Part shown: positions 5,594 to 60,588 of the stretch, in pieces
How positions within the stretch are numbered: the first letter of the stretch is position 1
Layout of the letters: every line of letters begins with the position of its first letter
Assembly (NCBI GenBank): GCA_951813565.1
Contig: OX638351.1
Coordinates: forward strand, 2,976,001 to 3,040,000
DNA from: an uncultured Poribacteria bacterium
GTDB lineage: Bacteria; Poribacteria; WGA-4E; WGA-3G
Length of the DNA: 64,000 nucleotides
Direction: 5' to 3'
The notes under the pieces: model-generated
Seen by the model: the letters and a program-made list of their open reading frames with translations, nothing else
Told to the model about the DNA's origin: nothing
The model's database searches: none
Program-made: the position numbers and the translations under genes

Positions 5594-5659
5594 GTAGTCG
5601 CGCAATTCATTGCCAAATCAACGCCAAATGCGCGTTTGGCATTTGGCGCCTCGGACATT
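5594..5659 (+). repeat. GTAG-REP hairpin with a 34-nt AATCAAC-hairpin insertion
   Basis: GTAGTCGCGCAATTCATTGC[5614-5647]GCCTCGGACATT; uninterrupted copy at 12399. Confidence 0.8.
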
Positions 5660-5734
5660 CTTCAATTCAATGTGAAATCAAATCTCACAATGAAATTTAT
5701 TTTCAGAAATGGTATTATACTCCTATACCTCTGC

Positions 5735-7165
5735 CTAACGTTTTGTTGTTGCCAAATACTTATTGGGTAGATCAGAATTATCTTGACTGATTTGTGCGGT
5801 ACTTCCTAAAAACTTCTCAATACCTCGGACAATAGCAGCGGCTACTTTTTGTTGATATGCATCCGAAGTAAGTTTATTTCCTTCCGTTGGATTCGTCACA
5901 AATCCTGTTTCAACGAGAATAGCAGGAACACTTGTACCAATGAGTACAACAAAACGTGCATGTTTTACACCACGGTCTACTGCACCTGTGGCGTCCACCA
6001 ATTCCTGCTGCACATATTTTGCCAATCGACGGCTATCCTTACTTTTACTCTCTACTATTAGTCCTTTTAAAAGAGTTTCCAATTCTTGTATGCTATACCC
6101 GGAGTTTGCATTTTCTCGCGCTGCGATGATTTCTGCGTTTTTATCTGTGCTCTTCACATCTAAATAATAAGTTTCAATGCCGTTGGCTCTCGAATTTCCA
6201 CTTGCATTGGCATGAATGCTCAAAAACAGGTCAGCCTTGTGTCTGGTAGCAAACGCTGTTCGTTCCTTCAACGAAATAAAACGGTCAGTATCTCGTGTTA
6301 GAAGAACCGTGTAACCTTTTGCAGTTAAGATCGCACCGATTTTCTTTGAAATATTCAGCACAATAGGTTTTTCTATGATATCTCTTGCGCTGCCACCTCC
6401 TGGATCTTTCCCACCGTGTCCAGCGTCTATCACAATCGTCTTAGCAGTTAATCCGAATTCACGTATAAGGGATCCGGGTGTTAACGCCTCTGGTTCAGCG
6501 GTAGGGGGTGCTGGTTTAACTTGCGGTTGAGTAGGGGTCTCATCCGGAGGTGTTGTAGGATTCTGTGGTGCCTTTAACTCCTGAAGTTCTTTAGAGGCAG
6601 TAGATACAATCTCTTTACTGTTGGCGGATTCAAGGATCTCAACGTAAAGCGTTTCAGCACGTGTTTTGTATCCATGCTCAGCATAAGTGCGTCCTAACGC
6701 CAACTGTGCCTCTGCTGCTAAGTCTGTCCCAGCATATCGGTTTGTAACAATCTGGTAGTGATGTGCTGCACGGGCAGAATCACCTATCAGCGTGTAGCAA
6801 CGGGCTATCCAGTAGTGTGCCTGAGGTAAATGCTCCGAATCTGGATAAGTATAAATTAATCTTCTAAATGCTGCAATGGCGCTTTGCGGTGCCTCAGAAT
6901 CGCCTTCTTTTATGCACCAAACCCAACAGGAAGCGATAGCATACTGTGCGTCATCTGCCGATGCATTTTCTGTATCCGCACGAATAACGTCTTCTAACTC
7001 CGTTATTAACGCATGCCATTCGTCAAGGGTCGCGTATTTCTCACCACTTGTATAGTTGTAATGTTGATCCGCTAACTGATTATAAGTCGGCATGGACATG
7101 GTAGCGCAGCCTGAGGATAGGACTGCTAACAATAGGATTATCATCCAGACAGGACACAATTTCAT
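5735..7165 (-). CDS. N-acetylmuramoyl-L-alanine amidase (Amidase_3) lipoprotein with TPR region
   Basis: Lipobox-like LSSGC, TPR helices, Pro-rich linker, IDAGHGGKDPG, SIHANA, LVETGF. Confidence 0.9.
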   Translation of the reverse strand: MKLCPVWMIILLLAVLSSGCATMSMPTYNQLADQHYNYTSGEKYATLDEWHALITELEDVIRADTENASADDAQYAIASCWVWCIKEGDSEAPQSAIAAFRRLIYTYPDSEHLPQAHYWIARCYTLIGDSARAAHHYQIVTNRYAGTDLAAEAQLALGRTYAEHGYKTRAETLYVEILESANSKEIVSTASKELQELKAPQNPTTPPDETPTQPQVKPAPPTAEPEALTPGSLIREFGLTAKTIVIDAGHGGKDPGGGSARDIIEKPIVLNISKKIGAILTAKGYTVLLTRDTDRFISLKERTAFATRHKADLFLSIHANASGNSRANGIETYYLDVKSTDKNAEIIAARENANSGYSIQELETLLKGLIVESKSKDSRRLAKYVQQELVDATGAVDRGVKHARFVVLIGTSVPAILVETGFVTNPTEGNKLTSDAYQQKVAAAIVRGIEKFLGSTAQISQDNSDLPNKYLATTKR

Positions 7166-7494
7166 GTATTTTACTCCTGCACATATATCAATTATGACGT
7201 TGTCCGCAAACTCCCCTCTAAAATGCGGAAATATGATTTTCTTTATGTATTTTATGTTATGAGATAAAACGAAAATCTACAACTTTCGTTACTAAAAAAG
7301 ACCGATAAAGATGCGGAAATAGTTGCTGGTTCAATGTGTATTAAGAGTTGTCTGAATTATAGATTTCATTGACTTATTAGTCCAATCACATTATAATTGT
7401 TGCAACTTATGCAATCCAGAAACTTTCCAAACTTTAGGGAATTGCAGTCTAAAATCCGTTAGACCTGAAATCCAAATCCAAGGAGAACTTAACA

Positions 7495-9426
7495 ATGAAA
7501 ACAGCCTTAACATTACTAATTTTTTTAACTGTGTTTTCCATAAACACCTCTGCACAAGATTTTCATTATACTCCCCTTGAGGGGCATACAAGATCCGTTA
7601 CCAGAATCGTATTCAGTCCTGACGGAACGATGCTTGCAAGCGCGAGTGAAGACAGAACAATTCGCATATGGGATGCTGCTACAGGAGCACATAAGCATAA
7701 ACTCATTGGTCATAATGCTTATATCTACTCTGTCGCGTTTAGTCCAGATGGATTGACACTCGCAAGTGGAAGCGAAAATGGTAAAATTCGTCTTTGGGAT
7801 GTCACCACGGGTCAATATAGGGTGACTCTTGAAGGACATCGTAATGCTGTCAGGAGTGTTGCATTTAGTCCCGATGGTAAAACACTCGCAAGCGGAAGTA
7901 ATGATTATACAATACGCTTGTGGAATGCTACCACTGGTTTATACAGAGTAACACTTGAAGGGCATTCTGAATATGTAAATAGTGTTGCCTTCAGTCCTGA
8001 TGGTAAAACACTCGCAAGCGGAAGTAATGATAGAACAATACGCTTATGGGATGCTACCACTGGTTTCCATCAACAAACCCTCACCGGGCACAATAGCCGG
8101 ATTTACAATATCTCGTTTATAGAGGATGGGCAGACAATTGCGAGTAAGAGTGATGATGGAACTGTCCGCTTATGGGATGCCACCACTGGCCAAGACAAGG
8201 AAACCCTTAATGTTAGTAATTTGCGGTACGTTTCAATAAACTCAGATGGGACAATGCTTGCAGGTGTGCAAAATCGCAGAATTTCACTATGGGATATTGC
8301 AACCGAAATTGAAGTAGCGTCACTCATGGGTCATACTTCTGATATTTATAGTCTTACGTTCAGTCCGGGAGGAAAAATATTAGCGAGTGGAAGTAGTGAT
8401 AGAACAATTCGCTTATGGGATCTCTCCACCCATGTTAACATTACACCTTCTACCGTTGAAGCCCCACCTGTTGGGAAACAATTTGAAATTAATATCAACA
8501 TTGCTGGAGGACAAGATGTTAGAGGTTATAAAATCACTATAGATTACGATAGCGAGTCACTACAGTATGTATCTCATGCTAACGGTGATTATCTTTCTGA
8601 CGATGTTTTTGAAGGTCCAACAGTAAGTCAACGAGGACAAGTATCATTTATCAATATATCTACTGCGGATGCTGGCAGCGGTGACGGCACACTTGCTACG
8701 ATAACCTTTAAAGTTATTTCACGCAGTGCTTCAACAATCAGTTTATCCGCAATGCTTTCTAACAGTGACGGCAATAGATTGCCTTATATAGTTATTTCTG
8801 GAAAGGTAGTAGAACCTCCATGGGATGTTAACGGTGATGGATCTGTAGATATATTAGATCTATCGTTCGTCGCTGCGCGTTTTGGACAAGAAGATCAAAC
8901 TGTGGCAGATGTAAATGGTGATGGCGTTGTTGACATTAAAGACCTTGTTGTCGTTGCCAGCGGGGTAGAGGCTGCTGCAGCCGCACCTTCTTCATATTCA
9001 CAGGCATTGACACTGTTCACTGCAACAGACATGCAAAAATGGTTATCACAAGCACAGCAGCTAAACCTCACAGATGCCACCTCACAGCGCGGTATTCACT
9101 TTTTAGAGCAACTCTTGGCAGCATTAACACCAAAAAAGACATCCCTATTGCCGAATTATCCGAACCCGTTCAATCCAGAAACGTGGATACCGTATCAGTT
9201 AGCAGAGTCTGCGGATGTTACGGTGACTATCTATGCAGTAGATGGTAAGGTGGTACGCAGGTTGGCATTAGGGCATAAGTCTGTCGGTATCTATCAAGGC
9301 AAGAGTCGTGCAGCACATTGGAATGGTAAAAATGCACTCGGTGAACCTGTTGCAAGCGGCGTGTATTTCTATACGCTAAAAGCAGAGGATTTTACTGCAA
9401 CGCGAAAAATGTTGATACGGAAGTAA
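7495..9426 (+). CDS. Secreted WD40 + cohesin + dockerin-like + C-terminal FlgD/T9SS-type sorting domain protein
   Basis: Signal peptide, about 7 WD40 repeats, DVNGDG x2, LLPNYPNPFNPETWIPYQL...RKMLIRK. Confidence 0.9.
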   Translation: MKTALTLLIFLTVFSINTSAQDFHYTPLEGHTRSVTRIVFSPDGTMLASASEDRTIRIWDAATGAHKHKLIGHNAYIYSVAFSPDGLTLASGSENGKIRLWDVTTGQYRVTLEGHRNAVRSVAFSPDGKTLASGSNDYTIRLWNATTGLYRVTLEGHSEYVNSVAFSPDGKTLASGSNDRTIRLWDATTGFHQQTLTGHNSRIYNISFIEDGQTIASKSDDGTVRLWDATTGQDKETLNVSNLRYVSINSDGTMLAGVQNRRISLWDIATEIEVASLMGHTSDIYSLTFSPGGKILASGSSDRTIRLWDLSTHVNITPSTVEAPPVGKQFEININIAGGQDVRGYKITIDYDSESLQYVSHANGDYLSDDVFEGPTVSQRGQVSFINISTADAGSGDGTLATITFKVISRSASTISLSAMLSNSDGNRLPYIVISGKVVEPPWDVNGDGSVDILDLSFVAARFGQEDQTVADVNGDGVVDIKDLVVVASGVEAAAAAPSSYSQALTLFTATDMQKWLSQAQQLNLTDATSQRGIHFLEQLLAALTPKKTSLLPNYPNPFNPETWIPYQLAESADVTVTIYAVDGKVVRRLALGHKSVGIYQGKSRAAHWNGKNALGEPVASGVYFYTLKAEDFTATRKMLIRK

Positions 9427-9509
9427 AGTTTTCTGCTGCTGTAGGGGAACGATACGAATCCCTCCTTTCTTCTCAAAAAACTTGACATCTTTCCTTCTTT
9501 GTGATACGC

Positions 9510-9920
9510 GGGTGAGTAAATATTTGGTTACATAGGTTCAATTTGCAATGATTACGCGGCGTTTTCCACTGTAGAACGGGGTCCCGGGGAATGCCATAAG
9601 GCATTCATACCGTTGATTTGGTGCCCCATAGCCGTCAATTTAAGGATATACCCTCTTGTGGGAGCGAATCAACGCAGCATGCGCGTTTGGCATGCTGCCA
9701 AATCAACGCCAAATGCGCTTTTTGGCATTTGTCGGGTTTTCAACCCCGATAAATACATATAAATCGGGCTTATAAAGCCCTCCCACAAGAGGCAATCTGG
9801 TAATTGTGTGCTTAAATTGACGCCTATGGGCGGGGTCCCGGGGAATGCCATAAGGCATTCCCCGGAGACCCGCCCCTACAATAGGAGTTGTGCGGATTTC
9901 TACAAAAACTTTACACACCC
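9510..9920. mobile_element. MITE (GGGTGTGTAAA-type ends) with nested inserts
   Basis: GGGTGAGTAAA...TTTACACACCC, 9-bp TSD GTGATACGC; short relative at 57624-57717. Confidence 0.85.
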
Positions 9921-10030
9921 GTGATACGCTTATAAACAGATTCTAAAGTATGCTATATGCAAAATTTTTGGAGAAAACATAAATATAGACACAAGCCAGC
10001 TGTTTTTGGTAGCCTAATGAGGCGTTGAAA

Positions 10031-10444
10031 ATGAAACACACGACAAAAATTGAACTTGCAAATCTACAAGACCTGAATTTGGCAAATGCAGGCGTTATCA
10101 AACCCGAAGAGGTTCGGCGCGCTACTGTTGAAAATGCACTCGTCTATACTGGAGCGACCCGGTTGTCGTTACCGAAATCCCTCATTGAACAACTCGGCTT
10201 GACGCCTGTCGGAACCACGCGAGCGAGGACAGCAAACGGTATTGTAGACCGGATAATTTATTCGACGGTCGAATTTACGGTATTGGACCGAAAGGAGACT
10301 ATTCGGGTAACGGACTTGCCAGAAGATACGCCTGTCCTTGTTGGGCACATGATTTTGGAACTCCTTGATCTCTGTCTTGATATCAAAAAAGGGTTGATCT
10401 ACAACCCTGACCACGACAATGAATGGATTGAAGACCAACTTTGA
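10031..10444 (+). CDS. Clan AA aspartyl-protease-like protein, catalytic Asp replaced by Tyr
   Basis: ALVYTGATRLSLP (family pattern ALVDTGA), VLVGHMILELLDL. Confidence 0.7.
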   Translation: MKHTTKIELANLQDLNLANAGVIKPEEVRRATVENALVYTGATRLSLPKSLIEQLGLTPVGTTRARTANGIVDRIIYSTVEFTVLDRKETIRVTDLPEDTPVLVGHMILELLDLCLDIKKGLIYNPDHDNEWIEDQL

Positions 10445-10512
10445 CAACTTCAACGAGGAAAGAGATATTACCCAAATAATTTCTGAATATTTTCAGAAAA
10501 AATCAAATTTTC

Positions 10513-10541
10513 TTGACAAACTGCATCGGACGTGTTATACT
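10513..10541 (+). promoter_or_regulatory. sigma70 promoter of the tRNA operon
   Basis: TTGACA-N17-TATACT about 40 bp before tRNA-Val. Confidence 0.75.
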
Positions 10542-10583
10542 TAATACCGTCCTTGAGATGAGATGATGTCACAATCTCATTTT

Positions 10584-10657
10584 GGGCGGGTAGCTCAGGT
10601 GGCTAGAGCGACAGCCTTACAAGCTGTAGGTCACAGGTTCAAGTCCTGTCCCGCCTA
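10584..10657 (+). tRNA. tRNA-Val(TAC)
   Basis: Acceptor GGGCGGG/CCCGCCT, anticodon arm ACAGC-CTTACAA-GCTGT, GGTTCAAGTCC; CCA not encoded. Confidence 0.95.
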
Positions 10658-10676
10658 CTTGTTAGAGGCATCTTAT

Positions 10677-10751
10677 GGGCTCGTGGCGCAGATGGTTTAG
10701 CGCGCCTGCCTGTCACGCAGGAGGTCGCGGGTTCAAGTCCCGTCGGGCCCG
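10677..10751 (+). tRNA. tRNA-Asp(GTC)
   Basis: Acceptor GGGCTCG/CGGGCCC, anticodon arm CCTGC-CTGTCAC-GCAGG, GGTTCAAGTCC. Confidence 0.95.
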
Positions 10752-10769
10752 TTTACATTATGAAGAATT

Positions 10770-10805
10770 AGCCACAGGTTGTGCCTTACAACGCTGTGGT
10801 TTTTT
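10770..10805 (+). terminator. Intrinsic terminator-like hairpin after the tRNAs
   Basis: AGCCACAG...CTGTGGTT followed by a T-run. Confidence 0.55.
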
Positions 10806-10852
10806 CGTTACAGGACACCAACATCATCCTATAATAGAGGAGCAAAACCGCA

Positions 10853-12142: not shown

Positions 12143-12160
12143 TGCTCAAGGATTCAAACC

Positions 12161-12355: not shown

Positions 12356-12506
12356 AATCTAAAAATACATTTACATTTTCTTAAGGTTAGCGGTGTTTGT
12401 AGTCGCGCAATTCATTGCGCCTCGGACATTTATGGCGTGTTTAAAATCCACATAAGAACAAAATGTAAAAATAATTATGGGTTCACTATAAAATAAGGAC
12501 AATAAA

Positions 12507-13490
12507 ATGGCAAAGACCATTGATGAAAAAGTCAATACCGTCATAACATATAATACTTTCTGGTACAATAATAGAGTTTTTGAGGAAAATTATGAAGCGC
12601 ACATCACATCTCTAAAGGAAACTCTACTTGTCCTGAGAAACCAAGTTCAAAACCAAGGACTCACTAAAGAGTTACTTGACGCTCTAATTTTGGAAAAAAC
12701 AAACGGGTTAAAAGTTCTATTGACTTTGACTGGATTTTCTAATGAACACTTTAAACGATTGATTACATTTATCAGGGTCATTGACGATGAAGAACTCTCA
12801 CAACTTTCTTGTAGGAACCTATGGATAGATGAAGCTGAGTTAGACGAGACGGGGGTAACAGAGTGGCAAGATGCCAAAATACAAAACAAAATACAAAATT
12901 GTGCTGATTTTAGGAGAGGGATCATCAATCTGTTCTTTGAAGGCTCTACGGTTCCCGTGCTTGCCAAAACTCTTCCGCTTTTTGAGTTAAAAAAATTAGG
13001 CGTTTCCAAACTTAGTTTTGAAGTTGAGGCGATGATTGATACGTTGATTCGGTATAAAGAGAAAGGTTCTTATTCAGGAAAGGCACAAAATAATGCTGAA
13101 GTCGTCATTGGAAAACTATTAGAAGAAATGGAAATCAGTTTTGAACAAAGTGTAGACTTAGAAAAGTTAAGAGAACACGCTCCAAACGAAAAGCGCACAA
13201 TGGATTTTATCATTCCCAACAGAGAAGAACCACAAGTCATTATTGAGTCTTCATATTCTAAAACAACTTCCTCTGGACAAGGTGATAAAGCAAAAACAGA
13301 GATTGCCATTAGAAACCTTCTTAGTAAACATTATTCTAATGCGCGCTTCTGGGGATTTGTTGACGGTATCGGTTGGTATGTTCGAAAAAAAGATTTGAGA
13401 AGAATGGTAGAAGCGTTTGAAGATGTATTTACTTTGGAAGAATCAGAACTTAGACGTTTCCAACAATCGCTAATTGCCGTTTTAAAATAA
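12507..13490 (+). CDS. Probable type II restriction endonuclease (PD-(D/E)xK)
   Basis: MDFIIP...IIESSY..TSSGQGDKAK, GFVDGIGW; adjacent to a methyltransferase. Confidence 0.7.
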   Translation: MAKTIDEKVNTVITYNTFWYNNRVFEENYEAHITSLKETLLVLRNQVQNQGLTKELLDALILEKTNGLKVLLTLTGFSNEHFKRLITFIRVIDDEELSQLSCRNLWIDEAELDETGVTEWQDAKIQNKIQNCADFRRGIINLFFEGSTVPVLAKTLPLFELKKLGVSKLSFEVEAMIDTLIRYKEKGSYSGKAQNNAEVVIGKLLEEMEISFEQSVDLEKLREHAPNEKRTMDFIIPNREEPQVIIESSYSKTTSSGQGDKAKTEIAIRNLLSKHYSNARFWGFVDGIGWYVRKKDLRRMVEAFEDVFTLEESELRRFQQSLIAVLK

Positions 13491-13531
13491 CAGAATGTTA
13501 ATAATCCCTCATGATTTATTCAAGGTGTACT

Positions 13532-14503
13532 ATGGAAAAATTTATCAACAAAATCATTCATGGAGATTGTATTGAGGTAATGCAGCAGATCCCTTCAGAT
13601 AGTATTGATGTGACATTTGCCGATCCGCCTTTTAACCTCAAAAAGAAGTACGGGACTTATAAGGACGAAAAGGGTACGGAAGATTATCTCAGTTGGTGCA
13701 AACAGTGGATTCTTGAAATGGTAAGGATAACAAAACCGAGTGGGTCCATCTTCTTGCACAATATTCCGAAATGGCTGACATATTATGCAGGGTTCCTAAA
13801 CGAAGTCGCAGATTTTCGGCACTGGATTGCATGGGACGCGCCAACAGCACCTATGGGAAAGACTTTGCAACCCTCACACTACGGCATTTTGTTTTATGCA
13901 AAAAATCAACGTGAAAATAAATTTTATGAAATTCGATATCCACATAAGCGGTGTCGGAAATGTGGATACTTGTTAAAAGACTACGGTGGAAAAAAGAAAA
14001 TTCTACACCCTTTTGGACCGCTTGTCTCTGATATATGGTCGGATATTCACCGAATTCGTCATAATAAACATAGAGACCCACATCCATGCCAACTCCCAGT
14101 ACATCTTTTAGAACGTCTTATATTGATGAGTACAGACGAAGGAGACGTGATCCTTGACCCGTTTATGGGAACTGGTACAACAGCTGTCGCAGCTGCAAGA
14201 TTGGGAAGAAACGTCATCGGTATAGATATTGATCCTCAATATGTGGAAATCACACAACGGAAATTAGCGCAAGAATCTCCAAACTCTAAAATTGAGGATA
14301 TCTGGGTAAGTTTTTATCTTGGTGAAATTGTTACAATTGTTGACAGAAACTGGGAAACGTTGAAGTCGTACTTTGTAATACCGGAGGACATGAGAGATAT
14401 TGACTTTGAAAAAATTAAAACTAATGGTGGTGTTGTTGCAACGGTACCTCAGTCCCTTCAACTTCCATTGAATCTTAAGGAGGAAAACTGTGACTGCTAT
14501 TGA
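13532..14503 (+). CDS. N4-C/N6-A DNA methyltransferase (beta class)
   Basis: FADPPF precedes HPCQLP and DPFMGTGTT. Confidence 0.92.
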   Translation: MEKFINKIIHGDCIEVMQQIPSDSIDVTFADPPFNLKKKYGTYKDEKGTEDYLSWCKQWILEMVRITKPSGSIFLHNIPKWLTYYAGFLNEVADFRHWIAWDAPTAPMGKTLQPSHYGILFYAKNQRENKFYEIRYPHKRCRKCGYLLKDYGGKKKILHPFGPLVSDIWSDIHRIRHNKHRDPHPCQLPVHLLERLILMSTDEGDVILDPFMGTGTTAVAAARLGRNVIGIDIDPQYVEITQRKLAQESPNSKIEDIWVSFYLGEIVTIVDRNWETLKSYFVIPEDMRDIDFEKIKTNGGVVATVPQSLQLPLNLKEENCDCY

Positions 14504-17393: not shown

Positions 17394-18484
17394 CAGGACT
17401 TACGCAATAATCAAAAATTGTGTTATACTATTGGATTATGATTTCATTTACACTTCCTGAAAAGAAGCAAAACTTACATTCCAACTATTGTCAATTTCTG
17501 ATAGCAAGTTTCACTAATTTCACACAAACCTATTTCGCAGACCATACTGAGAAGTGGAGCCACGATCAACTCAATCGATACCTGAGGAACGAAAACATTC
17601 CTTCAAGCGAACTCTGGAAATCTGTAAAACCGGACATTGAGTTTGATGAAGATGGATACATTGCCTTTGATGATGTCGTTCTCTCTAAGAAGTTTTCAAA
17701 ACAGATAGAAGCTGTTTACCATCAATGGAGTGGTAGCGACAAAAAAGTTATTCGTGGCATCGGTATTGTCACGTGTCTCTATGTCAACCCAAAAACTGGC
17801 GAGTATTGGGTCATTGATTATCGCATTTTTGACAAATCGCATGATGGTAAGACCAAAATAGACCATTTACTGGATATGTTGCATAATGCTGTCTTGAAAA
17901 AACAACTCCCGTTTCGGACCGTGTTGATGGATGCTTGGTATGTTTGTATGCAAGTGATGAAAGCGATTGAGAAACTTTCCAAGGTTTACTATGCGCCTCT
18001 GAAACGAAACCGACTTGTGAATGATACGGATGGTGTTGAACCACACCAGCATGTAGAAGATTTATCTTGGACACAGACAGAAAAGCAACAGGGGAAACGG
18101 GTTCACATCAAAAACTTTCCGAAAGGGCATCAAGTGAAGTTGTTCCGGATTGTATCTGAAAACGGACGCACGGAATATATTGTGACAAACGATTTATCTC
18201 AATCGGATGCGACTGCGACCAAAAACGAGTGTCGGGTTCGCTGGAAGATTGAGCAACTTCACCGTGAAATCAAACAGGTTACAGGTATTGATAAATGTCA
18301 GTGTCGTAAGTTGCGTGCCCAACGAAACCATATTGCCTGTTGTTTTCAGGTCTGGGTCTGTCTAATGCGTGCTGCACGGAAAGCCTCTCAAACGATTTAC
18401 CGACTCAAAGATAGTTTATTGGATGATTACATGCGACATCAACTCTCTAATCCTTCAATAATTTTCAAAACTGCGTAAGTCCTG
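17394..18484 (+). mobile_element. IS701-family insertion sequence
   Basis: IRs CAGGACTTACGCA / TGCGTAAGTCCTG, 5-bp TSD AATCC. Confidence 0.9.
17438..18478 (+). CDS. IS701-family DDE transposase
   Basis: AFDDVVLSK, VLMDAWY, RWKIEQLHREIKQVTG...CQCRK. Confidence 0.9.
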   Translation: MISFTLPEKKQNLHSNYCQFLIASFTNFTQTYFADHTEKWSHDQLNRYLRNENIPSSELWKSVKPDIEFDEDGYIAFDDVVLSKKFSKQIEAVYHQWSGSDKKVIRGIGIVTCLYVNPKTGEYWVIDYRIFDKSHDGKTKIDHLLDMLHNAVLKKQLPFRTVLMDAWYVCMQVMKAIEKLSKVYYAPLKRNRLVNDTDGVEPHQHVEDLSWTQTEKQQGKRVHIKNFPKGHQVKLFRIVSENGRTEYIVTNDLSQSDATATKNECRVRWKIEQLHREIKQVTGIDKCQCRKLRAQRNHIACCFQVWVCLMRAARKASQTIYRLKDSLLDDYMRHQLSNPSIIFKTA

Positions 18485-18596
18485 AATCCCATAGAATTCA
18501 ATCAAATCCCCTTCCATCCGCTGTTTCATTTCAGAATCTGCAAGTGTATTATAAACAGGACTTACCCAAATTTAGCGGAACAGGGATATTTTTTAC

Positions 18597-19007
18597 GTCA
18601 TAGGGACCCACTACCTAAAGGTAGGGGCTTGTGCTTCCTCGCGACTGCGGTTTTCGCTTAGCGTCCACCGTCTTATTGTCGCTCCACTTTAGGCAGCCAA
18701 GCCTGCCCGTTTGATCTATTTTTCGCAATGTCGTGGGTTGGCTCTGTTTCCACCCATTTTATAGCTGCCCTTTCTACCAGGCACGCCACGCGACAAGTCC
18801 TTAGACTTCGGGAGGGGTTGCCTCCGCTCACGCATTCCAGTCTGCAGTGCTGCAGTGGCTTGATATGGACGCTATCCACCAACTTTATAGATTTCGTTAT
18901 AGCGATGGGTTTTATTCCGCTTTCGCTGGACATTTTGTGATGTCCATCACATTGTTAGCCGTGGACATCCCCGCGCTAAAGCAACGGGGGCTTGACACAG
19001 AAAAACG
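18597..19007 (-). mobile_element. IS200/IS605-type non-autonomous element with no ORF
   Basis: Minus strand: TTAT then GTCAAGCCCCCGTTGCTTTAGCGCGGGG hairpin; other end AAGCCCCTACCTTTAGGTAGTGGG...TGAC. Confidence 0.6.
18632..18960 (-). ncRNA. Candidate structured RNA, copy 1
   Basis: Motifs and covarying stems shared with 20480-20885; strand inferred from the neighbouring genes. Confidence 0.5.
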
Positions 19008-23384: not shown

Positions 23385-24059
23385 TGTGAATCAAAGCCGA
23401 ATGCGCTTTTTGGCATTCGCCATGATTTGTAGCGTTGATTTCTTGATTTGGTGTATTCTGCCAAAAAGCGCATTCGGCGTTGATTTGGATTTTCGCGCAG
23501 ACAAAGCGCTTCTACAAAGAGGTCTTGCCAATGAGTGGCAACCAGCTAAAGTAAGGTAGGTGCGGTTTCCTAACCGCACCATAGACGTCAATTTAGGGGA
23601 TAAATCCCGTCACAGATTGTAGGGCGGGGTCTCTGTGCCCCGCCATTGCTGATGTATTCAAACAACGGGCGGGCACAGAGACCCGCCTCTACAATCTGTG
23701 ACGGTGTTGTTTGGGTTAAAATGTGTGAAACCTGAAATAAATCCTTAAATTGACACCTATGGTGCGGTTAGGAAACCGCAACCATAGACGTCAATTTAAG
23801 AAATAACGCGTTTGTAGTCGCGCAATTCATTGCCAAATCAACGCAGCATGCGCCAAATCAAGAAATCAACGGTATGAATCATGGCGAATCATGTAGAATA
23901 CCAAAAGCGTATTCTACCAAGCGCATTCGTCTTTAGTCATTCACCGGGTATGAATGCCTTATGGCATTCCCCGTGTGGCATGCTGCGCCTCGGACATTTA
24001 TGGCGTGTTTAAAATCCACATAAGAACAAAATGTCCAAATAATTATGGGTTTCACTATA
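23385..24059. repeat. Cluster of nested REPs, MITEs and AATCAAC hairpins
   Basis: GGTGCGGTTTCCTAACCGCACC, CATAGACGTCAATTTA...TAAATTGACACCTATG, GTAGGGCGGGG pair, multiple AATCAAC units. Confidence 0.8.
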
Positions 24060-29608: not shown

Positions 29609-30238
29609 TTAATCCTTGAGTTAGTAGGTTGCGTAGAGTTTGCGAAACCCAACATTTAGTTAGTCCGTTTGTAGTCGCGCAATTCATTGCGCCTCTTATC
29701 TTCCTGTAGGAGCGAGCTCCAGCTCGCGACCTGACCCAAAATGTCGAGAAAAACGCAAAAACTGAATGGTTCTGATTGTCTTCCCTGAGATTTGCCTTTC
29801 ACACCTCCTTGTGCTATATTAATCCTTGAGTTAGTAGGCTGCGTAGAGTTTGCGAAACCCAACATTTAGTTAGTCCGTTTGTAGTCGCGCAATTCATTGC
29901 GCCTCTTATCTTCCTGTAGGAGCGAGCTCCAGCTCGCGACCTGACCCAAAATGTCGAGAAAAACGCAAAAACTGAATGGTTCTGATTGTCTTCCCTGAGA
30001 TTTGCCTTTCACACCTCCTTGTGCTATATTAATCCTTGAGTTAGTAGGCTGCGTAGAGTTTGCGAAACCCAACATTTAGTTAGTCCGTTTGTAGTCGCGC
30101 AATTCATTGCGCCTCTTATCTTCCTGTAGGAGCGAGCTCCAGCTCGCGACCTGACCCAAAATGTCGAGAAAAACGCAAAAACTGAATGGTTCTGATTGTC
30201 TTCCCTGAGATTTGCCTTTCACACCTCCTTGTGCTATA
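29609..30238. repeat. 210-bp tandem repeat x3
   Basis: Units start near 29611, 29821 and 30031 and are almost identical; each holds three REP hairpins and a promoter-like motif. Confidence 0.95.
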
Positions 30239-34228: not shown

Positions 34229-34590
34229 ACGAGTTGTGCTAAATAACTATTTGTAAAATATTGTTTCACAATTACATGCCGTTTTGTTAGTTTTTATCAT
34301 TAGTTGATTCCTTCTTCAGTCCCGTGAATCAACGCCAAATACACGTTTGGTATTTGGCGGGGACGATATGTTTATAGAAAAACGTTGAACACCCTATCTT
34401 TAGTCCCGACAAATGCCATACGGGGAATGCCAAAAGGCATTCATACCCGGTGAATGACTAAATGTCATTCATACCGTTGATTTCTTGATTTGGCGCATTT
34501 GGCGTTGATTTGGTAGGGACGATATGTGTATAACATGAGTTCAATATGTGTGAAAAGAATACAAACAAATAGTTAACTAACACAAGTCGT
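34229..34590. mobile_element. MITE with nested REP/AATCAAC inserts
   Basis: ACGAGTTGTGCTAAATAACTATTTG / CAAATAGTTAACTAACACAAGTCGT, 7-bp TSD ATAATTT. Confidence 0.8.
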
Positions 34591-35606: not shown

Positions 35607-37253
35607 TTAAAAAGCATTCGCAACAATAACTAAATCTTGGATATTTACAACGCCATCGCCGTTTAGGTCGGGTTCTGCCTCGCCAAATGCATTTGCCACG
35701 ACGACTAAATCCAAGATATTGGTTTCGCCATCGCCGTTGACATCTGCATCGTATCGTAAGTCTGTGAGATTCAGAGCGGCAAGTGGACTAAAATCTGTTG
35801 CCGGATTGTTATTAATCCACAACGTTTCCAAATTCGTAAGTCCAGTAAGCGGACTGAAATCCTCTATATGGTTACGTGTCAAATGCAAAACACGCAGATT
35901 TTTCAGGCTCTCCAACGGAGTAATATCCGAAATGCCATTACGCTCCAAGGAAAGTTCCTCTAAGTGGATAAGGCCCGCTAATGGACTGATGTCAAGATCT
36001 GTCACCGGATCAGTCTCATTTGTAGGTGTATGCCAAACGTGTAATTGGACGAGATTTATCAAGTTTGCGAGCGGACGTAGGTCTGTTATCCTGTTCCTAC
36101 CGCCAAGATGTAGTATCTTTAGGTTCGTGGCATGTTCTAACCCTGTGATATCAACAATGCCTCTGTGGTTTGCCTGTAATACCAGATTAACTTGATTCCA
36201 ATCTATCGGTGCGGTGAATCAACGCCAAATAAGCGTTTGGCGGGAACGACATAGCACTATACACATTTCGCCCCGCTGGGGCTCAAAAAAGCTTCTTAAC
36301 CGTTTTCTATACACATTTCGCCCCGCTGGGGCTCAACACAACTACAAGCGCGGACTCATTTCCTTAAATTGACTTCTATGGTGTGGTGAATCAACGCCAA
36401 ATAAGTGTTTGGTATTTGTTGGGAAACCGCACCTACCACCCGAAAAATAAGATAATTTCCGTTAATTTGATATAAGCGCGTCAACACCAGCATCTTGTCT
36501 TTTGTCAACGGGACATCTGCTGGCAATCCTAATTCTTCCAGAACCGCTGCTCGCAAAGCAGCATCCGGCATCCATTCCGATGCCGCTTGTGGGTCCACTG
36601 TCGTAAAGTCTAACACTTCAACAGCACCAACACTGTTAGTGCTGGCTTCTTGTTTGAGGTACATCTCACCATCTAAATCAGGAACGATATGTGTTGCGCT
36701 TGTAATACCACTTGCGACACCGGTGGCTTGTATCGGCAGCTGAATCTTTTGCGCCTTTCCACTACGGTTATAGACTGCCCAGCCGTTTGTAAACTCCCGG
36801 ATAAAAAGTCCTTCTCGATTTTCATAAAGTTGTGCCTTCTCCCCGACAGGTTTGCCGAGATCTGCATCCCAAAAATCATACCAAATATGAGCATGGTGCG
36901 GTAGGCCGTAGTCGACATCTGTTAATCCCATATTGTAAAGCACATATCCGTCCGAATGGGTTAGACCTAATGTCGTAATTAATCGCATGTTTCGTAGGTT
37001 TTCGGTGCTGTCCGGTGGCTGTGTGCCGATTCCAAATCCTTCCAAACTATTGATCTGTGGTGCTCGTAGATTTTCTTCGCACCAATGCAGTGTATTTTCA
37101 ATTTCCTGCAAACCTTTATAATTGTATCCTCCCGGATAATCTTTCAGAGTTTCCATATAGGAACCGTTTAAATATTGGGTGTACGCTGTAGGTTTCGTCC
37201 GATTCGTATTTGCTATAAATAAAAAATCATTGTGTACCCGAGAACGTACTTCA
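35607..37253 (-). pseudogene. Leucine-rich-repeat + dockerin-like protein, 5'-truncated by IS982 and split by a MITE
   Basis: WMPDAALRAAV LRR cap, LRR units, DVNGDG; removing 36180-36472 plus one TAA restores LTRL-QANHRGIVDITGLEHATNL. Confidence 0.85.
36180..36472. mobile_element. 293-bp MITE with TAA duplication
   Basis: TACCAGATTAAC / GTTAATTTGATA ends, TAA on both sides. Confidence 0.8.
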
Positions 37254-53290: not shown

Positions 53291-53408
53291 GGACATGACA
53301 GCAAACACAATTACATACGGACGAGTTATTTTAACCTTTCTCGTTATGGCATGTGGTTTTATCACAGACTGGAAAAATCCTATAGTAAGCCAATTACTTG
53401 AACACTAC

Positions 53409-53655: not shown

Positions 53656-53658
53656 TTT

Positions 53659-54681: not shown

Positions 54682-55030
54682 AATTACTCCTTGTGTTAAT
54701 TTAAATTATTATTGGGATTTCTCATAATTGATCTAAACCTAATGCCATCAATAGAAAACACTTAGACAGACATGAAAATGCGTCCAAGTTATGATGATTT
54801 TGTCTGCTTTTTCTGGAAGGAAACCTGCTTAGGAATACCGTTGTATCTCGGAGGTTTTTGGGTCTCGTCTCCCAAAATAACATCTTTCATAAAGTAAATG
54901 TGCATCAAAAGTGGAAATAAAGGAACATAAAGTAGCTCCTTTTCTTGCCCTATTGGACAATATCCTTTATGTTTTACTCAATATGACTTCAAGTCCAGTC
55001 CTGATGACATGTGAAAAGTATAACGAATAC

Positions 55031-55471
55031 CTAATAACGCTGCAGGTCCTGGTCAACCTCACTTGCCCACCTATCAATCCCGCCAGCGACGCTGAGTACC
55101 GATTTGAATCCAAGTTGTTGTAGGAGGTATGCGGCATCAAGGCTTCGCATGCCATGATGACAGTAAACGACGATCTCATCTACTGGTGAAAGTTCGCGAA
55201 ACCGCCTCGGCAACTCACCCAGCGGAATAGACACCGCTCCCTCAATGTGAACGAGTTGATACTCCCATACTTCTCTGACATCAAGTAAAACAAAATCCCT
55301 ACCAGCATCTACCATCTGTTTAAGTTCATTTGGTAGGATTGCGTAATCTTCAGGATCAAATGGCAGGATTGCCTCTTCTACACTTGGTGCTACCCGTGGT
55401 AGGAAGTTGTCTCGTGAGGTTCTGGCGGAATCCCAGAGTTTGTATAATAAGTTTTTGATCCGTTTAAACAT
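55031..55471 (-). CDS. Rhodanese-like domain protein
   Basis: LLDVRE..E....HI.GA, YCHHGMRS, GGIDRW. Confidence 0.88.
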   Translation of the reverse strand: MFKRIKNLLYKLWDSARTSRDNFLPRVAPSVEEAILPFDPEDYAILPNELKQMVDAGRDFVLLDVREVWEYQLVHIEGAVSIPLGELPRRFRELSPVDEIVVYCHHGMRSLDAAYLLQQLGFKSVLSVAGGIDRWASEVDQDLQRY

Positions 55472-55505
55472 TTCTTGCTCTTAGTTCAAAAGTAAGATAT
55501 GCCGA

Positions 55506-57539
55506 TTAAAATGTAATCGTCATGCCTAACGTAGGGATAATTGGGAGAAGGGGTTCTTCCTCAATCACACAGCCGGTAATAGCACCTGTTTCTTCATTTC
55601 GCACTTCACTGAACGCATACTGGTCAAGATTGGTGTGATTATAAAGGTTTAGTATTTGAAAATACCACGTGAGTGACCATCGCCTATACGGACTCCGCTT
55701 TGTAATCCGAAAATCGAGACTATGGAATGCTGGCAATTGCTCTGAATGTGTTTCACCGAATTGCCGGTCACAACCGATGCCCCCATTTGGCAACCAAACC
55801 TCTTCGTGAGTCAAAGGCGTTCTCGGATCGCCGGTATGAAAACGCCAACTGAGATAAAGATGCCATGTTGATGTAATCTGATGACTACTGCTCAGGAAAA
55901 TAGAATGCCGTCGGTCATATTGTCGAAAGATCGTTGTGTTTCCTGATGTTTCTTTTGCAATACCATAAGCGTAGCCGAGTCCCCATGTCAAACGTGGTGA
56001 AACTGCCTGCGTTGCAAATAGATCAAATCCTTTTGCATTAGCGGATTCTGGCGAGGTGAAAATCTGTGTTTGCCTTCCGAATTCTCTGAGTCTACCTACC
56101 AGATTATCAAATTTTTTATAGTATCCTTCAAGACGAATCAGAAAATTGTTGCCACGACTATATTCACAACCCAAAATGTAATGCGTTGCTTGTTCTGCCC
56201 GTCCGACGGTCTTTATACTATCTTCAACAGGTACTGACATCAGATCAACAGGTTGATGATAGATGCCCCATGCGCCTCGCAATACTAAGTTTTTCTTCGG
56301 ACTCACAGCGAGCGCCACACGGGGACCAATTTCATAGTTTTGAACATCTGCATTCCGATAGCTCTGAACGATATAGCGACCACCCACGTTGAGTGCGAGT
56401 TTCGGATGAATTTGCCACTCATCTTGCAAAAATAATTTGATGTCACTCCCGCTATCGTCAATATCTGCGTTAATCTGTTTATATCTGTTTATGCCCGCCT
56501 GCCGTTCTTGGACATCGTATTCGTATTGGGCAGCCGACCAACGCCACTCAACACCAGTACGGAACGTATGTTTTTCTAATCCGTTTACTGTTAGTTCTGC
56601 TTTTGTGCCCAAAAATCGGAAGTCGCGATTGTCAAAATCCGATTTTCCAGTTGTTCTCTCTTGGCTTGATGTGCCTCCAAAAACAAAGACATCTGTCCAA
56701 TACGAAGCGCCGAACGTATGTCGCCATTTTAGCCAAGTGGTCGAATTGTCGTATAGGGAATCCAAGTTGTTATCTACATCATCTACACGTATCAGATTTT
56801 TATCCCAACCGTACAACCCGTTAAGCGTTAGTGTGTCTGCCTCTGTTACCTGATATATCAGTTTTCCATAGATATCGGCATATTGCGGTTTATATTCTTC
56901 GTCAAGGTCTATGAGTGCAAGGATTAGGTCAACGTAACCACGACGTGCTGACAGCATCCATCCCCCTTTTTTAGAGATGGGTCCCTCCACCATAGCGGTT
57001 GCGTTGATAAGGTCTATCCCAAAATTTGCTGAGACCTTTTCTGTATTCGGTGTCTTGGTTGTCATATCAAACACGCCAGACATTTTTTGCCCATATTCTG
57101 CTGGAAATCCGCCCATCAGCAGATCAGCGCGTTGGATTAAACCGAGACCGACCAACGAAACAGCTCCGCCAAAATCTTGCAGATGATACGGATTATAGAG
57201 TTCCATTCCGTCCAATCTAATTGATACGCCATCCTTTTCTCCACCTCGTACACTGAAGCGCGCGCTATAATCGCTTGCAATGACTCCCGGTAAAATATGC
57301 CCTGAACGCATGATGTCGTTGTCTATCAAAGGAAACCTTTCTATCTCCTCCTTTGAGAGTGAGAGTTGCGGGATCGTGCCATCATAAATCATAAATCGGC
57401 CAGGGGTTACAACAATTTTATCAAGTTCTATCGGTTCTCGATTTTCTTGTGCATAAACCGTAAGAAAATGAGCGATTTGAAAAAAGAGAATATAAAAAAG
57501 GAGAAATTTGATGGCGCACAATCTGATGTTGGACATCAT
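55506..57539 (-). CDS. TonB-dependent receptor
   Basis: DKIVVT TonB box, plug SVRGG, GGFPAEYG, C-terminal Phe. Confidence 0.88.
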   Translation of the reverse strand: MMSNIRLCAIKFLLFYILFFQIAHFLTVYAQENREPIELDKIVVTPGRFMIYDGTIPQLSLSKEEIERFPLIDNDIMRSGHILPGVIASDYSARFSVRGGEKDGVSIRLDGMELYNPYHLQDFGGAVSLVGLGLIQRADLLMGGFPAEYGQKMSGVFDMTTKTPNTEKVSANFGIDLINATAMVEGPISKKGGWMLSARRGYVDLILALIDLDEEYKPQYADIYGKLIYQVTEADTLTLNGLYGWDKNLIRVDDVDNNLDSLYDNSTTWLKWRHTFGASYWTDVFVFGGTSSQERTTGKSDFDNRDFRFLGTKAELTVNGLEKHTFRTGVEWRWSAAQYEYDVQERQAGINRYKQINADIDDSGSDIKLFLQDEWQIHPKLALNVGGRYIVQSYRNADVQNYEIGPRVALAVSPKKNLVLRGAWGIYHQPVDLMSVPVEDSIKTVGRAEQATHYILGCEYSRGNNFLIRLEGYYKKFDNLVGRLREFGRQTQIFTSPESANAKGFDLFATQAVSPRLTWGLGYAYGIAKETSGNTTIFRQYDRRHSIFLSSSHQITSTWHLYLSWRFHTGDPRTPLTHEEVWLPNGGIGCDRQFGETHSEQLPAFHSLDFRITKRSPYRRWSLTWYFQILNLYNHTNLDQYAFSEVRNEETGAITGCVIEEEPLLPIIPTLGMTITF

Positions 57540-57623
57540 GCAGCCTCACTGTTTGATTTGAAGGTTACGTGAAGTATAACATCTTTTAAGAATAAGTGTC
57601 AATAAATTTTATAATAAATGATT

Positions 57624-57717
57624 GGGTGTGTAAAGTTTTTGTAGAAATCCGCCCTACAGTGGAAAACGCCGCGTAATCATGCAAATTGAACCTATGTAAC
57701 CAAATATTTACACACCC
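57624..57717. mobile_element. 94-bp MITE (GGGTGTGTAAA ends)
   Basis: Perfect 11-bp terminal inverted repeat, 8-bp TSD AAATGATT. Confidence 0.88.
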
Positions 57718-57783
57718 AAATGATTCCACAACATTGACATGTGTTATGTTCCATGCTATACTTCCAAAAAGGAGAAATGGCTT

Positions 57784-58535
57784 ATGGTTACGCAAAAAGA
57801 CATTCAAGCCACCTGTGACGACATTGTCCGTGAATTTGCGCCTCTACAGGTTATTCTGTTCGGCTCCTATGCTTATGGCAGCCCAACGGAAGACTCGGAT
57901 GTTGATTTGCTGGTAGTGATGGATATTCCGGAATCTGATACGCGTCGCCAGGCAGTGGAAATTCAGGAACGTATTCCTCGTCGCTTTAGTATGGATCTGC
58001 TTGTCCGTTCACCTGAAGAGATCGCCTATCGAATTTCTCATAACGACTGGTTCCTTCGTGAGATCACTGAAAGAGGCAAAGTGCTTTTTGGAAATGTTCG
58101 TTTTTTCAAGATACCTTATACGAAAAAAGAGGGAGGTATGAATCCATTAACGCTGGAGTGGGTAGAAAAAGCTGAGGACTTTTATAACTTAGCAAAGGGA
58201 ACCAACACCAGCAAAATCCGATCCATGATATTACCTACTTCTATGCCCAACAGTGTGCCGAAAATTATCTTAAGGCTTGGTTGCAAGAAGCAAATATTCC
58301 CTTTCCAAAGACACATAATATGAATGAATTGTTAATGCTAATTGTGCCTACGATTCCTGCTTGGTCAGTTTGGGAGACAGCTCTATCAACGCTTTCCAAA
58401 AATGCAGTGGACTTTCGCTATCCGGGCAAGTGGGCAACAACAGGCGACATGGAGTATGCAATGCAGATCTGCAATCAGGTTCGCCAAGCAATTCGGGAAG
58501 CGTTGAAATTGCCGAAAAATCAATTAGAAAGGTAG
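57784..58535 (+). pseudogene. MNT nucleotidyltransferase-HEPN module with a frameshift in HEPN
   Basis: LFGSYAYG..DSDVDLLV; in-frame MNPLTLEWVEKAE at 58138; AQQCAENYLKAWL...KTHN...FRYPG continues in another frame. Confidence 0.75.
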
Positions 58536-58544
58536 GTTTAGCAC

Positions 58545-59360
58545 ATGAGTGCAGGAACAACAATAAATATCCCCAAATTAGAACTCTCTGCGGAGGAACG
58601 CGCTGAAAGTAAACCGACACATGAGAGCATTGATGCTGCCACTCGTCTGTTACGTGAGGCAGGATTAGTTGTCATTGAAAGCGTTCTTCCCCGCGATTGG
58701 ATTGAAGAAGTTAACACTGCAATGCAAACAGTGCTTGATAGAGAAGAAGATGATCATAACGGCCCAAACCCGATGTTAAAAATGCCGTTTATGGATGCGC
58801 GTATCATTGACAACCCGTTTGCAATGCCAATAATGAAAGCTGCAATGGGCGATAAGATTTTTGCATATTTGCCCTACGGGTGCAATGCAACTACCCCTGG
58901 TAACGAGATACAATGGATTCATCGCGATTCTGGACAACTTTTCCCTGAATTGCCGTTCGCGCTACCTGTTTCAACAATCGTTGTGAATATCCCACTTGTT
59001 GATTTTACGGTGAAAAACGGTGCGACAGAGGTTTGGCCTGGATCACATCTCATCATTGATGATGAGGCAGTACGGAATACGCCTTACAACGTCTGTGATG
59101 AGGCTCGCGCTGCAAAAATGCCTTCTTTTCAGTTAGTTATGCCTGCGGGTTCTGTCGTGGTGCGTGATATGCGGTGCTGGCATCGCGCAATGCCGAATCG
59201 GTCGCAAATTCGGCGTCCTATGCTCGCCCTCGTCTATTTCCGAAGGTTTCATCATTCGCCTGATGCTCCAGGAATATTTAGGGCAAAGGTTTCAGAAGAT
59301 ATATGGACGAACATGTCCGAAAATGCACAAGAGGTCTACCGTTTTCAGGCACACGATTAA
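58545..59360 (+). CDS. Phytanoyl-CoA dioxygenase (PhyH) family protein
   Basis: HRD, NGATEVWPGSH, WHRAMPN. Confidence 0.88.
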   Translation: MSAGTTINIPKLELSAEERAESKPTHESIDAATRLLREAGLVVIESVLPRDWIEEVNTAMQTVLDREEDDHNGPNPMLKMPFMDARIIDNPFAMPIMKAAMGDKIFAYLPYGCNATTPGNEIQWIHRDSGQLFPELPFALPVSTIVVNIPLVDFTVKNGATEVWPGSHLIIDDEAVRNTPYNVCDEARAAKMPSFQLVMPAGSVVVRDMRCWHRAMPNRSQIRRPMLALVYFRRFHHSPDAPGIFRAKVSEDIWTNMSENAQEVYRFQAHD

Positions 59361-59387
59361 GAAATCATTGTATTATAAGAGGAATTT

Positions 59388-60284
59388 ATGGAACGCACAC
59401 TGCTTATTCATCCAGATATGTCCGATATTGATAGAGAACATGGATTTTCCAATATCAACGGGCCTTCGCTTGTTCGCGTGCCAGAATGGGTAGAAAACCC
59501 GTTAGGCAAATATTATCTCTATTTCGCACACCATCGTGGCGCCTATATCCGTTTAGCGTATGCTGATGAGGTTGAGGGTCCGTATACCGTCTATCGCCCT
59601 GGCACACTGCATCGTGATAACACAGTCTTTAAAGGATGTGATCATATCGCTTCGCCAGATGTCCATATAGACGAGGATAACAAACGTTTTATTATGTATT
59701 TTCACGGCAATTATCGTGGTGGACAGGCAACTTGTTGGGCAACCTCCTCCGACGGCATCCATTACACGGCATCTGAAACGTTAGAGAAACAGCAGGGACC
59801 CTATTTCCGTGTCTTTTGGTGGAAGGGTCTTCCTTACGCAACGAATCATAACATGCTGAACCGCGGTAAAACTGCTGAATGGACGACTGTGTTTGAAAGG
59901 CGTGACACTCCGCTCTTTCCCGGGGAACCGGGTAAAGGTAGGGATGGCACCCCGCGCCACACAGCGAACCACCTTGTCGGAAATACGCTGATCGTTTATT
60001 ATTCGCTTTATGGTGGGACGCCGGAACGTATTTTAAAAAGCACAGTGGAGCTTACAGAAGATTGGAATGATTGGTATCCCTCTCCACCGACAGAGGTTAT
60101 CGCACCAAAATACGAATTTGAGGGTGTGGATATACCGATTGTGCCTTCAACGAATGGACTTGACAGGGAGCGGGTGCATCAACTTCGTGACCCCGATATC
60201 TACTGTGAAGGCGAAGATACTTGGCTTCTCTATTCTGTTGCTGGTGAACAGGGGATTGCGATTATGAAACTTGCTTCTGGATAA
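59388..60284 (+). CDS. Five-bladed propeller glycoside-hydrolase-like protein
   Basis: NINGPS, YYLYFAHH, HIASPDV, LRDP. Confidence 0.65.
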   Translation: MERTLLIHPDMSDIDREHGFSNINGPSLVRVPEWVENPLGKYYLYFAHHRGAYIRLAYADEVEGPYTVYRPGTLHRDNTVFKGCDHIASPDVHIDEDNKRFIMYFHGNYRGGQATCWATSSDGIHYTASETLEKQQGPYFRVFWWKGLPYATNHNMLNRGKTAEWTTVFERRDTPLFPGEPGKGRDGTPRHTANHLVGNTLIVYYSLYGGTPERILKSTVELTEDWNDWYPSPPTEVIAPKYEFEGVDIPIVPSTNGLDRERVHQLRDPDIYCEGEDTWLLYSVAGEQGIAIMKLASG

Positions 60285-60395
60285 GACTGCGGAGTTTTCG
60301 GTTTTTGCCCATTTTAGTTGGAAAGTCGCGACCGGGAGGTCGCTCCTACGAAAGAAGCGTTAAACAAGAGAAACTGCAACATAGTATTACGTCTT

Positions 60396-60588
60396 GGGCA
60401 TGTAAAGTTTTTTGCATGAATACTTTTTCTTTTGTTGGAGTAAATCAACGCTATGAATGCCTTATGCGCATTTGGCGTTGATTTGGCAGCATGCCATACG
60501 CGCATGCTGCGTTGATTTGGATTTATCGGGCTTACAAAGCCCTCCAACAAGAAAATGGCATGGTTAATGCAAATATATTTACACACCC
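60396..60588. mobile_element. MITE (GGGTGTGTAAA family) with nested AATCAAC hairpins
   Basis: GGGCATGTAAA...TTTACACACCC, 9-bp TSD TTACGTCTT. Confidence 0.82.

Follow-up and report, generated by a model that had tools for sequence, protein, structure and literature searches.

Does a hairpin of about 34 nt, tagged by the heptamer AATCAAC and found repeatedly inside REPs and inside its own copies, move as an element in its own right, and what could move it? The question is raised by a 64,000-nt stretch of DNA (the window, G000:C1:2976001-3040000) from a genome of 5.43 Mb and 43% GC belonging to the genus Ca. Poribacteria. A sequence-only reading of the window had proposed a minimal mobile hairpin parasitizing REPs and perhaps moved by a HUH/Y1 enzyme. 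Here we examine the unit's boundaries, targets and distribution, its presence and absence at orthologous sites, and the candidate machineries.

Architecture of the unit and its copies in the window

The unit consists of two nucleotides, an AATCAAC leader and a 9-bp hairpin; it is non-coding and 34-36 nt long, mostly 34-35. It starts 2 nt upstream of AATCAAC (e.g., at 5614, 9665 and 34325), has asymmetric ends without terminal inverted repeats, and contains a single hairpin, not two subterminal ones. The heptamer occurs 30 times in the window versus 16.0 +/- 3.8 in shuffled sequence (none of 100 shuffles reached 30), and the complete leader-hairpin pattern gave five matches versus none in 100 shuffles. 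Genome-wide, a perfect stem of at least 8 bp directly follows AATCAAC at 271 of 2358 sites; with 11 control heptamers, each having 749-2040 sites, the count was 0-5. Conversely, among 299 hairpins defined by their stems, 295 have the leader with no more than one mismatch, and in 287 of these 299 cores it is exactly AATCAAC. The stems covary, as the sequence-only reading had stated. In an alignment of 83 copies (79 from other genomes and four from the window, leaving out two reverse readings of double-leader copies), 97.9% of cells are paired against 86.8% after shuffling, a score reached by none of 500 shuffles; all four free stem pairs vary on both sides, five pairs being fixed by the search pattern. 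The unit at 5614 folds as a 10-bp hairpin that includes the next G (z -3.3). An Rfam search of the window returned two tRNAs only.

For 214 of 407 simple units the exact empty junction was found elsewhere, and the commonest removal (161 cases) comprises the two nucleotides, AATCAAC and the hairpin. Recursive removal gives at least 548 units in the genome (18.9 kb in total; 509 of them 34-35 nt long), a lower bound since more complex nests were left after it. Unclosed leaders correspond to nested or decayed copies, and 15 sites carry a double leader, some with palindromic flanks. Eight of 563 unit clusters lie inside ORFs of at least 180 aa, the remainder outside such ORFs. No strand bias of the units was established, GC skew showing no clear origin for a leading/lagging test. 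The pattern is present in 36 of 39 congeners, with 0 to 271 matches per genome, and a stricter version of it was found in none of 16 genomes from other families of the order. Among the matches listed across all species genomes, 79 of 80 loci belong to Ca. Poribacteria and one to an uncultured bacterium, and the 31 copies in five low-copy genomes (30 loci examined) occupy the usual REP contexts. Three viral matches turned out to be one imperfect sequence and were judged to be due to chance.

All copies cited in the sequence-only reading lie in the window where that reading placed them. The 34-nt unit at 5614..5647 (plus strand, CA leader, GCCAAATGC stem) is a clean C|G insertion splitting a GTAG REP (5594..5652, plus strand) whose family borders RAYT genes elsewhere in the genus (loci L021 and L028), and its excision gives the sequence of the empty host REP at 12399..12423 (plus strand). 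Other empty copies start at 29671, 29881 and 30091, with a further one at 61843-61862 on the minus strand, so that of the seven window copies of this REP five are empty and two, at 5614 and 23834, are filled, in line with what had been read at 12399, 5614 and 23835. The REP and its unit are carried in turn by a MITE-like element (5550..5714, no strand assigned) with imperfect TIR and TTA duplicated on both sides. At 13 orthologous loci this carrier is absent from 11, one locus is poorly anchored, and one (G020) has a similar element about 20 nt away, which holds an empty REP variant.

Further along, a 35-nt unit of the GGTATGAATGC class (9586..9620, minus strand) sits in a REP loop that is one target base short of the common empty allele, and a two-unit array stands at the foot of a GTGG REP, where a 34-nt unit with CG leader and GCAGCATGC stem (9665..9698, plus strand) is followed at its 3' foot by a 35-nt unit with CA leader (9699..9733, plus strand). 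The composite at 23387..23487 (minus strand), which automatic peeling did not resolve, comprises two leader-bearing units of the GCCGAATGC and GCTACAAAT types and ends in a decayed opposite leader. The nesting reported for the REP at 23814 is real, but it runs over 23834..23986 (plus strand), and two of its five layers lack the AATCAAC leader: within an outer GCAGCATGC unit, a GGTATGAATGC unit occupies the loop (23854-23972), another unit lies in the leader of the latter (23862-23945), and two leaderless hairpin modules are innermost (23880-23932 and 23890-23921). Its 83-nt core is found 24 times unchanged, and the entire nest 18 times with no more than six substitutions; this nest has therefore spread as a block; nested stacks in general have spread largely as ready-made blocks. 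At 34325..34358 (plus strand), a 34-nt unit with TG leader stands at a GTAG tag with one target base replaced, an instance of the second junction class described below. The repeat stack around it is wholly absent at the orthologous site in G002 and G052, and most relatives are without the entire carrier at both the 5614 and the 34325 sites. A second copy of its REP houses a three-layer nest (34408..34512, minus strand) made of an outer GCCAAATGC unit, a loop unit and a leader unit (34449-34484). Two copies listed earlier among the further ones, both with TG leader and on the plus strand, are present in reduced form: one is truncated to 27 nt (36215..36241) and the other, in a REP loop, is decayed (36387..36420). 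Finally, the pair at 60441..60519 joins a hairpin with a leader on each side (60441-60485, no strand assigned) to a clean 34-nt unit (60486-60519, minus strand).

Targets, hosts and mobility

The CA-leader form inserts cleanly at C|G(G), without target duplication. In 326 of 435 units the junction is ambiguous by 0-1 nt, so a fixed duplication is absent. We compiled 111 distinct target contexts from 428 units, the 5' members of arrays being left out: G follows the unit in 107 of them, GG in 76, and C precedes it in 66, while, on the strand opposite the leader, 61 have the form NCCC and 107 have C in last place, a looser rule than a true IS605 target. A-start units, whose stem closes with A-T, end in T; even so, 20 of their 35 rows have a CA leader and a C|G target. 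The last base is thus the element's own, and guide pairing through the first stem base is refuted. Following the guide rule that IS608 reportedly obeys, we also tried GTTG at the 3' foot (other strand) as a speculative guide, which fits fully in only 31 of the 111 targets. When 429 units were set against empty alleles, 187 were clean, 76 replaced 1-2 target bases, and 166 had no empty allele. The 76 (of 263 with an empty allele) form a second junction class, mostly with TG, CG, GG or TA leaders at GTAG-type tags and with short matches at both ends. At 37 junctions outside repeated DNA, hairpin strength was no different from background (p 0.10).

Of 432 junctions 395 fall within repeated DNA, where 38% of non-coding CGG sites lie. 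The palindromes that the unit interrupts are those found at the flanks of RAYT and TnpA-like genes in this genus, and therefore qualify as true REPs. The description of the unit as a hyperparasite of REPs is to that extent apt, but block copying of filled REPs and MITEs inflates the enrichment, and clean insertions occur in coding DNA without a REP. Most hosts are genuine REPs of the RAYT-associated kind, yet insertion can do without them.

Two such coding sequences carry exact insertions of 35-36 nt. The first is a gene for a DDE transposase (Pfam), in which the source genome has a 36-nt unit and G048 a different 35-nt variant at one site; G006, G002 and G012 have this site empty, as do five copies without the CG. 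The second belongs to the lipoate-ligase family: an in-frame 36-nt unit adds 12 residues in the source genome, G006 and G052, the gene being without the unit in G020, G002 and G012. In addition, a single REP site is found genome-wide 155 times empty and 78 times filled, with 10 different unit starts. The unit is a real mobile element, its mobility shown at orthologous sites, and the proposal of a minimal leader-hairpin that inserts into REPs and into itself is upheld. The sequence-only reading had named two findings that would tell against it, namely units that never differ between orthologous loci and units that are fixed parts of a larger known element; units do differ between such loci, and, with 111 distinct target contexts, they are not fixed parts of one larger element.

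The 3' foot of a unit renews the target, so that arrays build up. All 85 internal array members have a CA leader and 34 of 53 first members do not, and arrays therefore need a CA donor, not simple slippage. Much of the copy number is nonetheless passive copying of filled REPs and MITEs, together with recombination within arrays. Among 90 metagenome loci at least 93% identical to the source genome, 68 lack any indel that reaches 15 nt, and differences of unit size between strains are confined to arrays, at four loci (L357, L396, L405 and L359) where short-read assembly of repeats may affect them; L357 differs by exactly one 34-nt unit at a 3' foot, with more than 1100 aligned bases on each side. 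The metagenome loci argue against high present-day activity of the unit. MITE-like carriers do differ between near-identical strains at several loci. Contigs from four runs aligned to a 19.5-kb stretch break at the repeats and so speak neither for nor against loss of the unit; those of three runs span one unit site and carry it.

Comparison with known elements

The closest precedent appears to be the small dispersed repeats (SDR1-8) of Nostocaceae, a likeness drawn from their descriptions. SDRs, described by Elhai et al. 2008 (Genome Res 18:1484), are reportedly 21-27 nt long, with covarying structure, self-nesting, and residence in other repeats or minitransposons; covarying structure and self-nesting are observed in our unit as well, which is longer at 34-36 nt. 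In the passages of the citing papers that treat them, SDRs are very small non-coding repeats judged mobile, with no known enzyme and found in Nostocaceae only, and SDR5 inserts between bases 3 and 4 of HIP1 (PMC4390886, PMC5861425, PMC2884548, PMC3116915), a precise insertion at a short target comparable to that of the unit at C|G(G), which is exact even in coding DNA. A fixed single-stranded leader, the C|G(G) target and confinement to one Poribacteria genus set the unit apart from SDRs.

The unit is, as REPs are, a 20-40-nt intergenic palindrome at high copy, and it shares with REPs, REPINs and BIMEs, as portrayed in excerpts of the literature, the combination of short tag and hairpin, hundreds of intergenic copies, arrays and occasional in-frame residence in genes (PMC3333891, PMC8266576, PMC3116915, PMC3733652, PMC6006769). 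It differs from REPs in having a 7-nt AATCAAC leader and no GTAG/GTGG or CGTC foot tag, and in flanking no cognate RAYT gene. It also moves as a single exact-ended hairpin, whereas the same excerpts present REPINs as doublets and REP singlets as thought immobile (PMC3333891, PMC8266576, PMC3116915, PMC3733652, PMC6006769). Rickettsia palindromic elements, in the part of the source concerned with them, resemble it in placing an in-frame palindrome in a working gene (for the unit, the 12 residues in the lipoate-ligase-family gene of three species; PMC3733652), but the unit is much shorter, almost wholly intergenic, and has a defined leader and target. From MITEs it is distinguished by the lack of terminal inverted repeats and of target duplication. 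The IS200/IS605 family has two subterminal hairpins, each with a 5' guide, where the unit has one, and the unit in linear form has no 5'-foot guide; the IS605-type elements resident here have TTAG targets and ends unrelated to the unit, which is about one tenth as long as the short derivatives observed. Absence of target duplication, a one-sided target motif and hairpin-dependent ends are, going by the sections on IS200/IS605 elements and derivatives such as PATEs, common to both (PMC8266576). The unit falls outside the definitions of REPs, IS200/IS605 derivatives and MITEs, yet works like a hairpin-dependent, duplication-free element. Literature searches at the level of listings returned no description of an AATCAAC hairpin family.

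Candidate enzymes and routes of movement

Y1 genes are found in 36 of 40 genus genomes, including every high-copy one, and RAYT-type hits in 35. Intact Y1 proteins of the source genome include RAYTs at G000:C1:242089 and 5070893, a TnpA-like protein at 3098010 and an IS605 TnpA at 228440. The search for RAYT/TnpA genes flanked by the motif, put forward earlier as a check on a HUH/Y1 mover, went against that expectation: the unit stands on both sides of a Y1/RAYT-like gene at none of 60 genus loci (which include at least one false hit) and none of 10 in the source genome, and no such gene has it as its flanking repeat. A leader-type match lies near the gene at eight of the 60 genus loci and at two of the 10 source-genome loci, each on one side. 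No Y1 hit was obtained in G023 (17 units, one contig, 92% complete) or G010 (8 units), completeness being 92-94%, and G016 and G053 have Y1 genes and no unit match. None of the unclosed leaders bounds a long element with unit ends. Of 4264 ORFs, 50 have units on both sides within 400 bp, and, judged by eye from the first 60 residues, none of these is a Y1 or reverse transcriptase gene (they include a cas1 and an IS fragment). The genes present today may not mirror past bursts of the unit.

As the likeliest mover we propose, at somewhat less than an even chance, a borrowed, putative HUH (Y1-type) transposase acting on single-stranded DNA. Such an enzyme would read the leader and upper stem, cut one strand at both unit ends and insert the unit at a C|G that hairpin-rich DNA exposes, perhaps through a hypothetical 34-nt dumbbell circle; passive copying of filled REPs and MITEs and array recombination would then raise the copy number. 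The fixed leader, structure-fixed stem, one-sided target and missing duplication make HUH cut-and-rejoin the best fit among known chemistries. On the non-leader strand the layout resembles IS200/IS605 logic, with conserved target bases (mostly CCC) before the first element base and a conserved tail inside the far end. In the portions of the cited work on RAYTs, these enzymes cleave hairpin DNA in single-stranded form at a dinucleotide and join it again, and a model with an excised circle has been put forward (PMC3333891, PMC8266576); the cuts named there are C|T and C|A, and C|G, the genomic junction of the unit, is not among them (PMC8266576). Against the HUH model stand also the lack of a GTAG-type guide at the 5' foot of the hairpin and the roughly one third of junctions with an empty allele that are not clean. 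A bolder version, which we hold to be rather unlikely, would make the unit a one-hairpin transposon, the smallest possible single-stranded DNA element, using one hairpin for both ends and a 34-nt dumbbell circle as intermediate, with a putative HUH-type or other enzyme having its own C|G rule, target regeneration leading to arrays, and 12-residue protein inserts.

The untidy junctions are better explained if no dedicated transposase is involved and a nick at a REP, due to a RAYT or to a repair enzyme, leaves a free 3' end from which the host polymerase switches template via 1-3 bases of microhomology, copies the unit and switches back. The RAYT-associated hosts, the 1-2 target bases lost with short matches at both ends in the second junction class, and the fold-back or recombination at the hairpin seen in double-leader sites and some palindromic flanks fit this route, and nick-primed synthesis belongs to the published BIME model as outlined in part of its source (PMC3333891). 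It leaves unexplained a near-invariant 7-nt leader beside a covarying stem, and the exact 35-36-nt insertions in REP-free genes, and we give it the same rather low probability as the one-hairpin transposon. Less probable still is an RNA route, in which a nicked target receives a processed hairpin RNA by joining or by reverse transcription, as was reportedly proposed for the Nostoc repeats. As in target-primed copying, the unit stops exactly at the hairpin base on one side and shifts by 0-2 nt at the leader end, and the source genome has one CRISPR-linked and one Abi-like reverse transcriptase; but no PF00078 hit was detected in G006 (271 units), G012, G048, G017 or G014 (49-271 matches each), G016 has many such hits and no unit, units are split almost evenly between sense (96) and antisense (127) relative to transcription, and a G-T wobble bias in the source genome (50 vs 17 contexts) is absent from other genomes (22 vs 21).

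Exchange at a 1-2-base core such as CG by a non-HUH recombinase (IS110/bridge-type or other) would account for the missing duplication and the short core ambiguity, and some IS families are known to target REPs according to a passage of PMC3733652. We regard it as improbable, given that an IS110 transposase (PF02371) is absent from the source genome, the one searched, and that A-start units ending in T at C|G targets leave no core common to unit end and target. That the unit is not self-mobile, varying by slippage only as a fixed part of larger REP/MITE composites, accords with the block copying, the carriers differing between near-identical strains and the array-confined size differences; it is contradicted by the insertions in two protein genes, the many target contexts, the different unit starts at one REP site and the CA-only internal array members, which make it very improbable. 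Off-target integration of a spacer-sized hairpin by Cas1 is more doubtful again and largely refuted, although the unit matches spacer length (34-41 nt) and the source genome has two cas1 genes, one beside a reverse transcriptase: no unit occurs among the 51 and 47 spacers of two arrays, no cas1 was detected in G006, G048 or G017 (56-271 matches), G001 has two cas1 genes and no unit, and no repeat-length duplication is seen.

How repeats of 20-40 bases move has been an open question since the small dispersed repeats of Nostoc were described, and single REP hairpins are usually taken as immobile. The present case has a precedent and comes from an uncultured organism. In the AATCAAC family the ends are exact, the target follows a rule, stems and leaders vary naturally, and the candidate enzymes are few, which opens the movement of such repeats to direct study by oligonucleotide cleavage and strand-transfer assays. 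If the enzyme is found, a 34-base recognition module with scarless insertion would be a useful tool.

Units, host REPs and MITE-like elements

The host REP, the GTAG-type palindrome that units interrupt, is found in three empty copies with an exact 210-nt period at window positions 29671-30110, and another empty copy is directly followed by a gene pair encoding a DpnII-like endonuclease and an adenine methylase (12507-14503). The window also carries a DDE transposase gene (17420-18478) and, at 18595-18715, a 121-nt piece from the right end of the resident IS605-type element. When near-identical strains were compared with the genome under study (G000), MITE-like elements of 92-215 nt were found to be variable (loci L332, L337, L342, L330 and L354); one of these is inserted within a unit composite, and one bears a filled REP.

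Elsewhere on the same contig (C1), a 36-nt unit lies inside a gene for a lipoate-ligase-family protein (G000:C1:4511629-4511664; locus L186:829-1647), which has thereby gained 12 residues in frame, a feature common to three species. Two metagenome contigs only 76% like G000 (L326, L352) display a perfect leader and hairpin match lacking the G-rich target, and these matches are either due to chance or distant copies.

RAYT classes of the genus, and reverse transcriptases

At least five distinct RAYT/TnpA-like classes are present in the genus, each with its own REP (L018-L057, L410-L429), and one class, of 220-290 aa, scores under the NCBIfam cut-off. A reverse transcriptase gene of G000 lies between cas1 and a 52-repeat CRISPR array (C1:3989000-3995000), and units occur in the intergenic DNA flanking cas1 on both sides. 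Many long reverse-transcriptase matches were also found on small contigs of five genomes (G055, G015, G016, G050 and G052), and these look like eukaryotic retroelements that come from the host sponge and were binned with the bacterial sequences.

Leaderless sister hairpins

Leaderless hairpins of ~26 nt, found genome-wide and in the window (23880-23932), are sisters of the leader-bearing units: they share the upper stem and the loop with them, and have a short ATG tail. A single pattern counts 63 copies genome-wide. Their size matches the range of the SDRs of Nostocaceae, the closest known kind of element. The leaderless hairpins sit as insertions within the 3' arm of units that have the leader, and may represent a second micro-element whose target is the leader-bearing unit itself.
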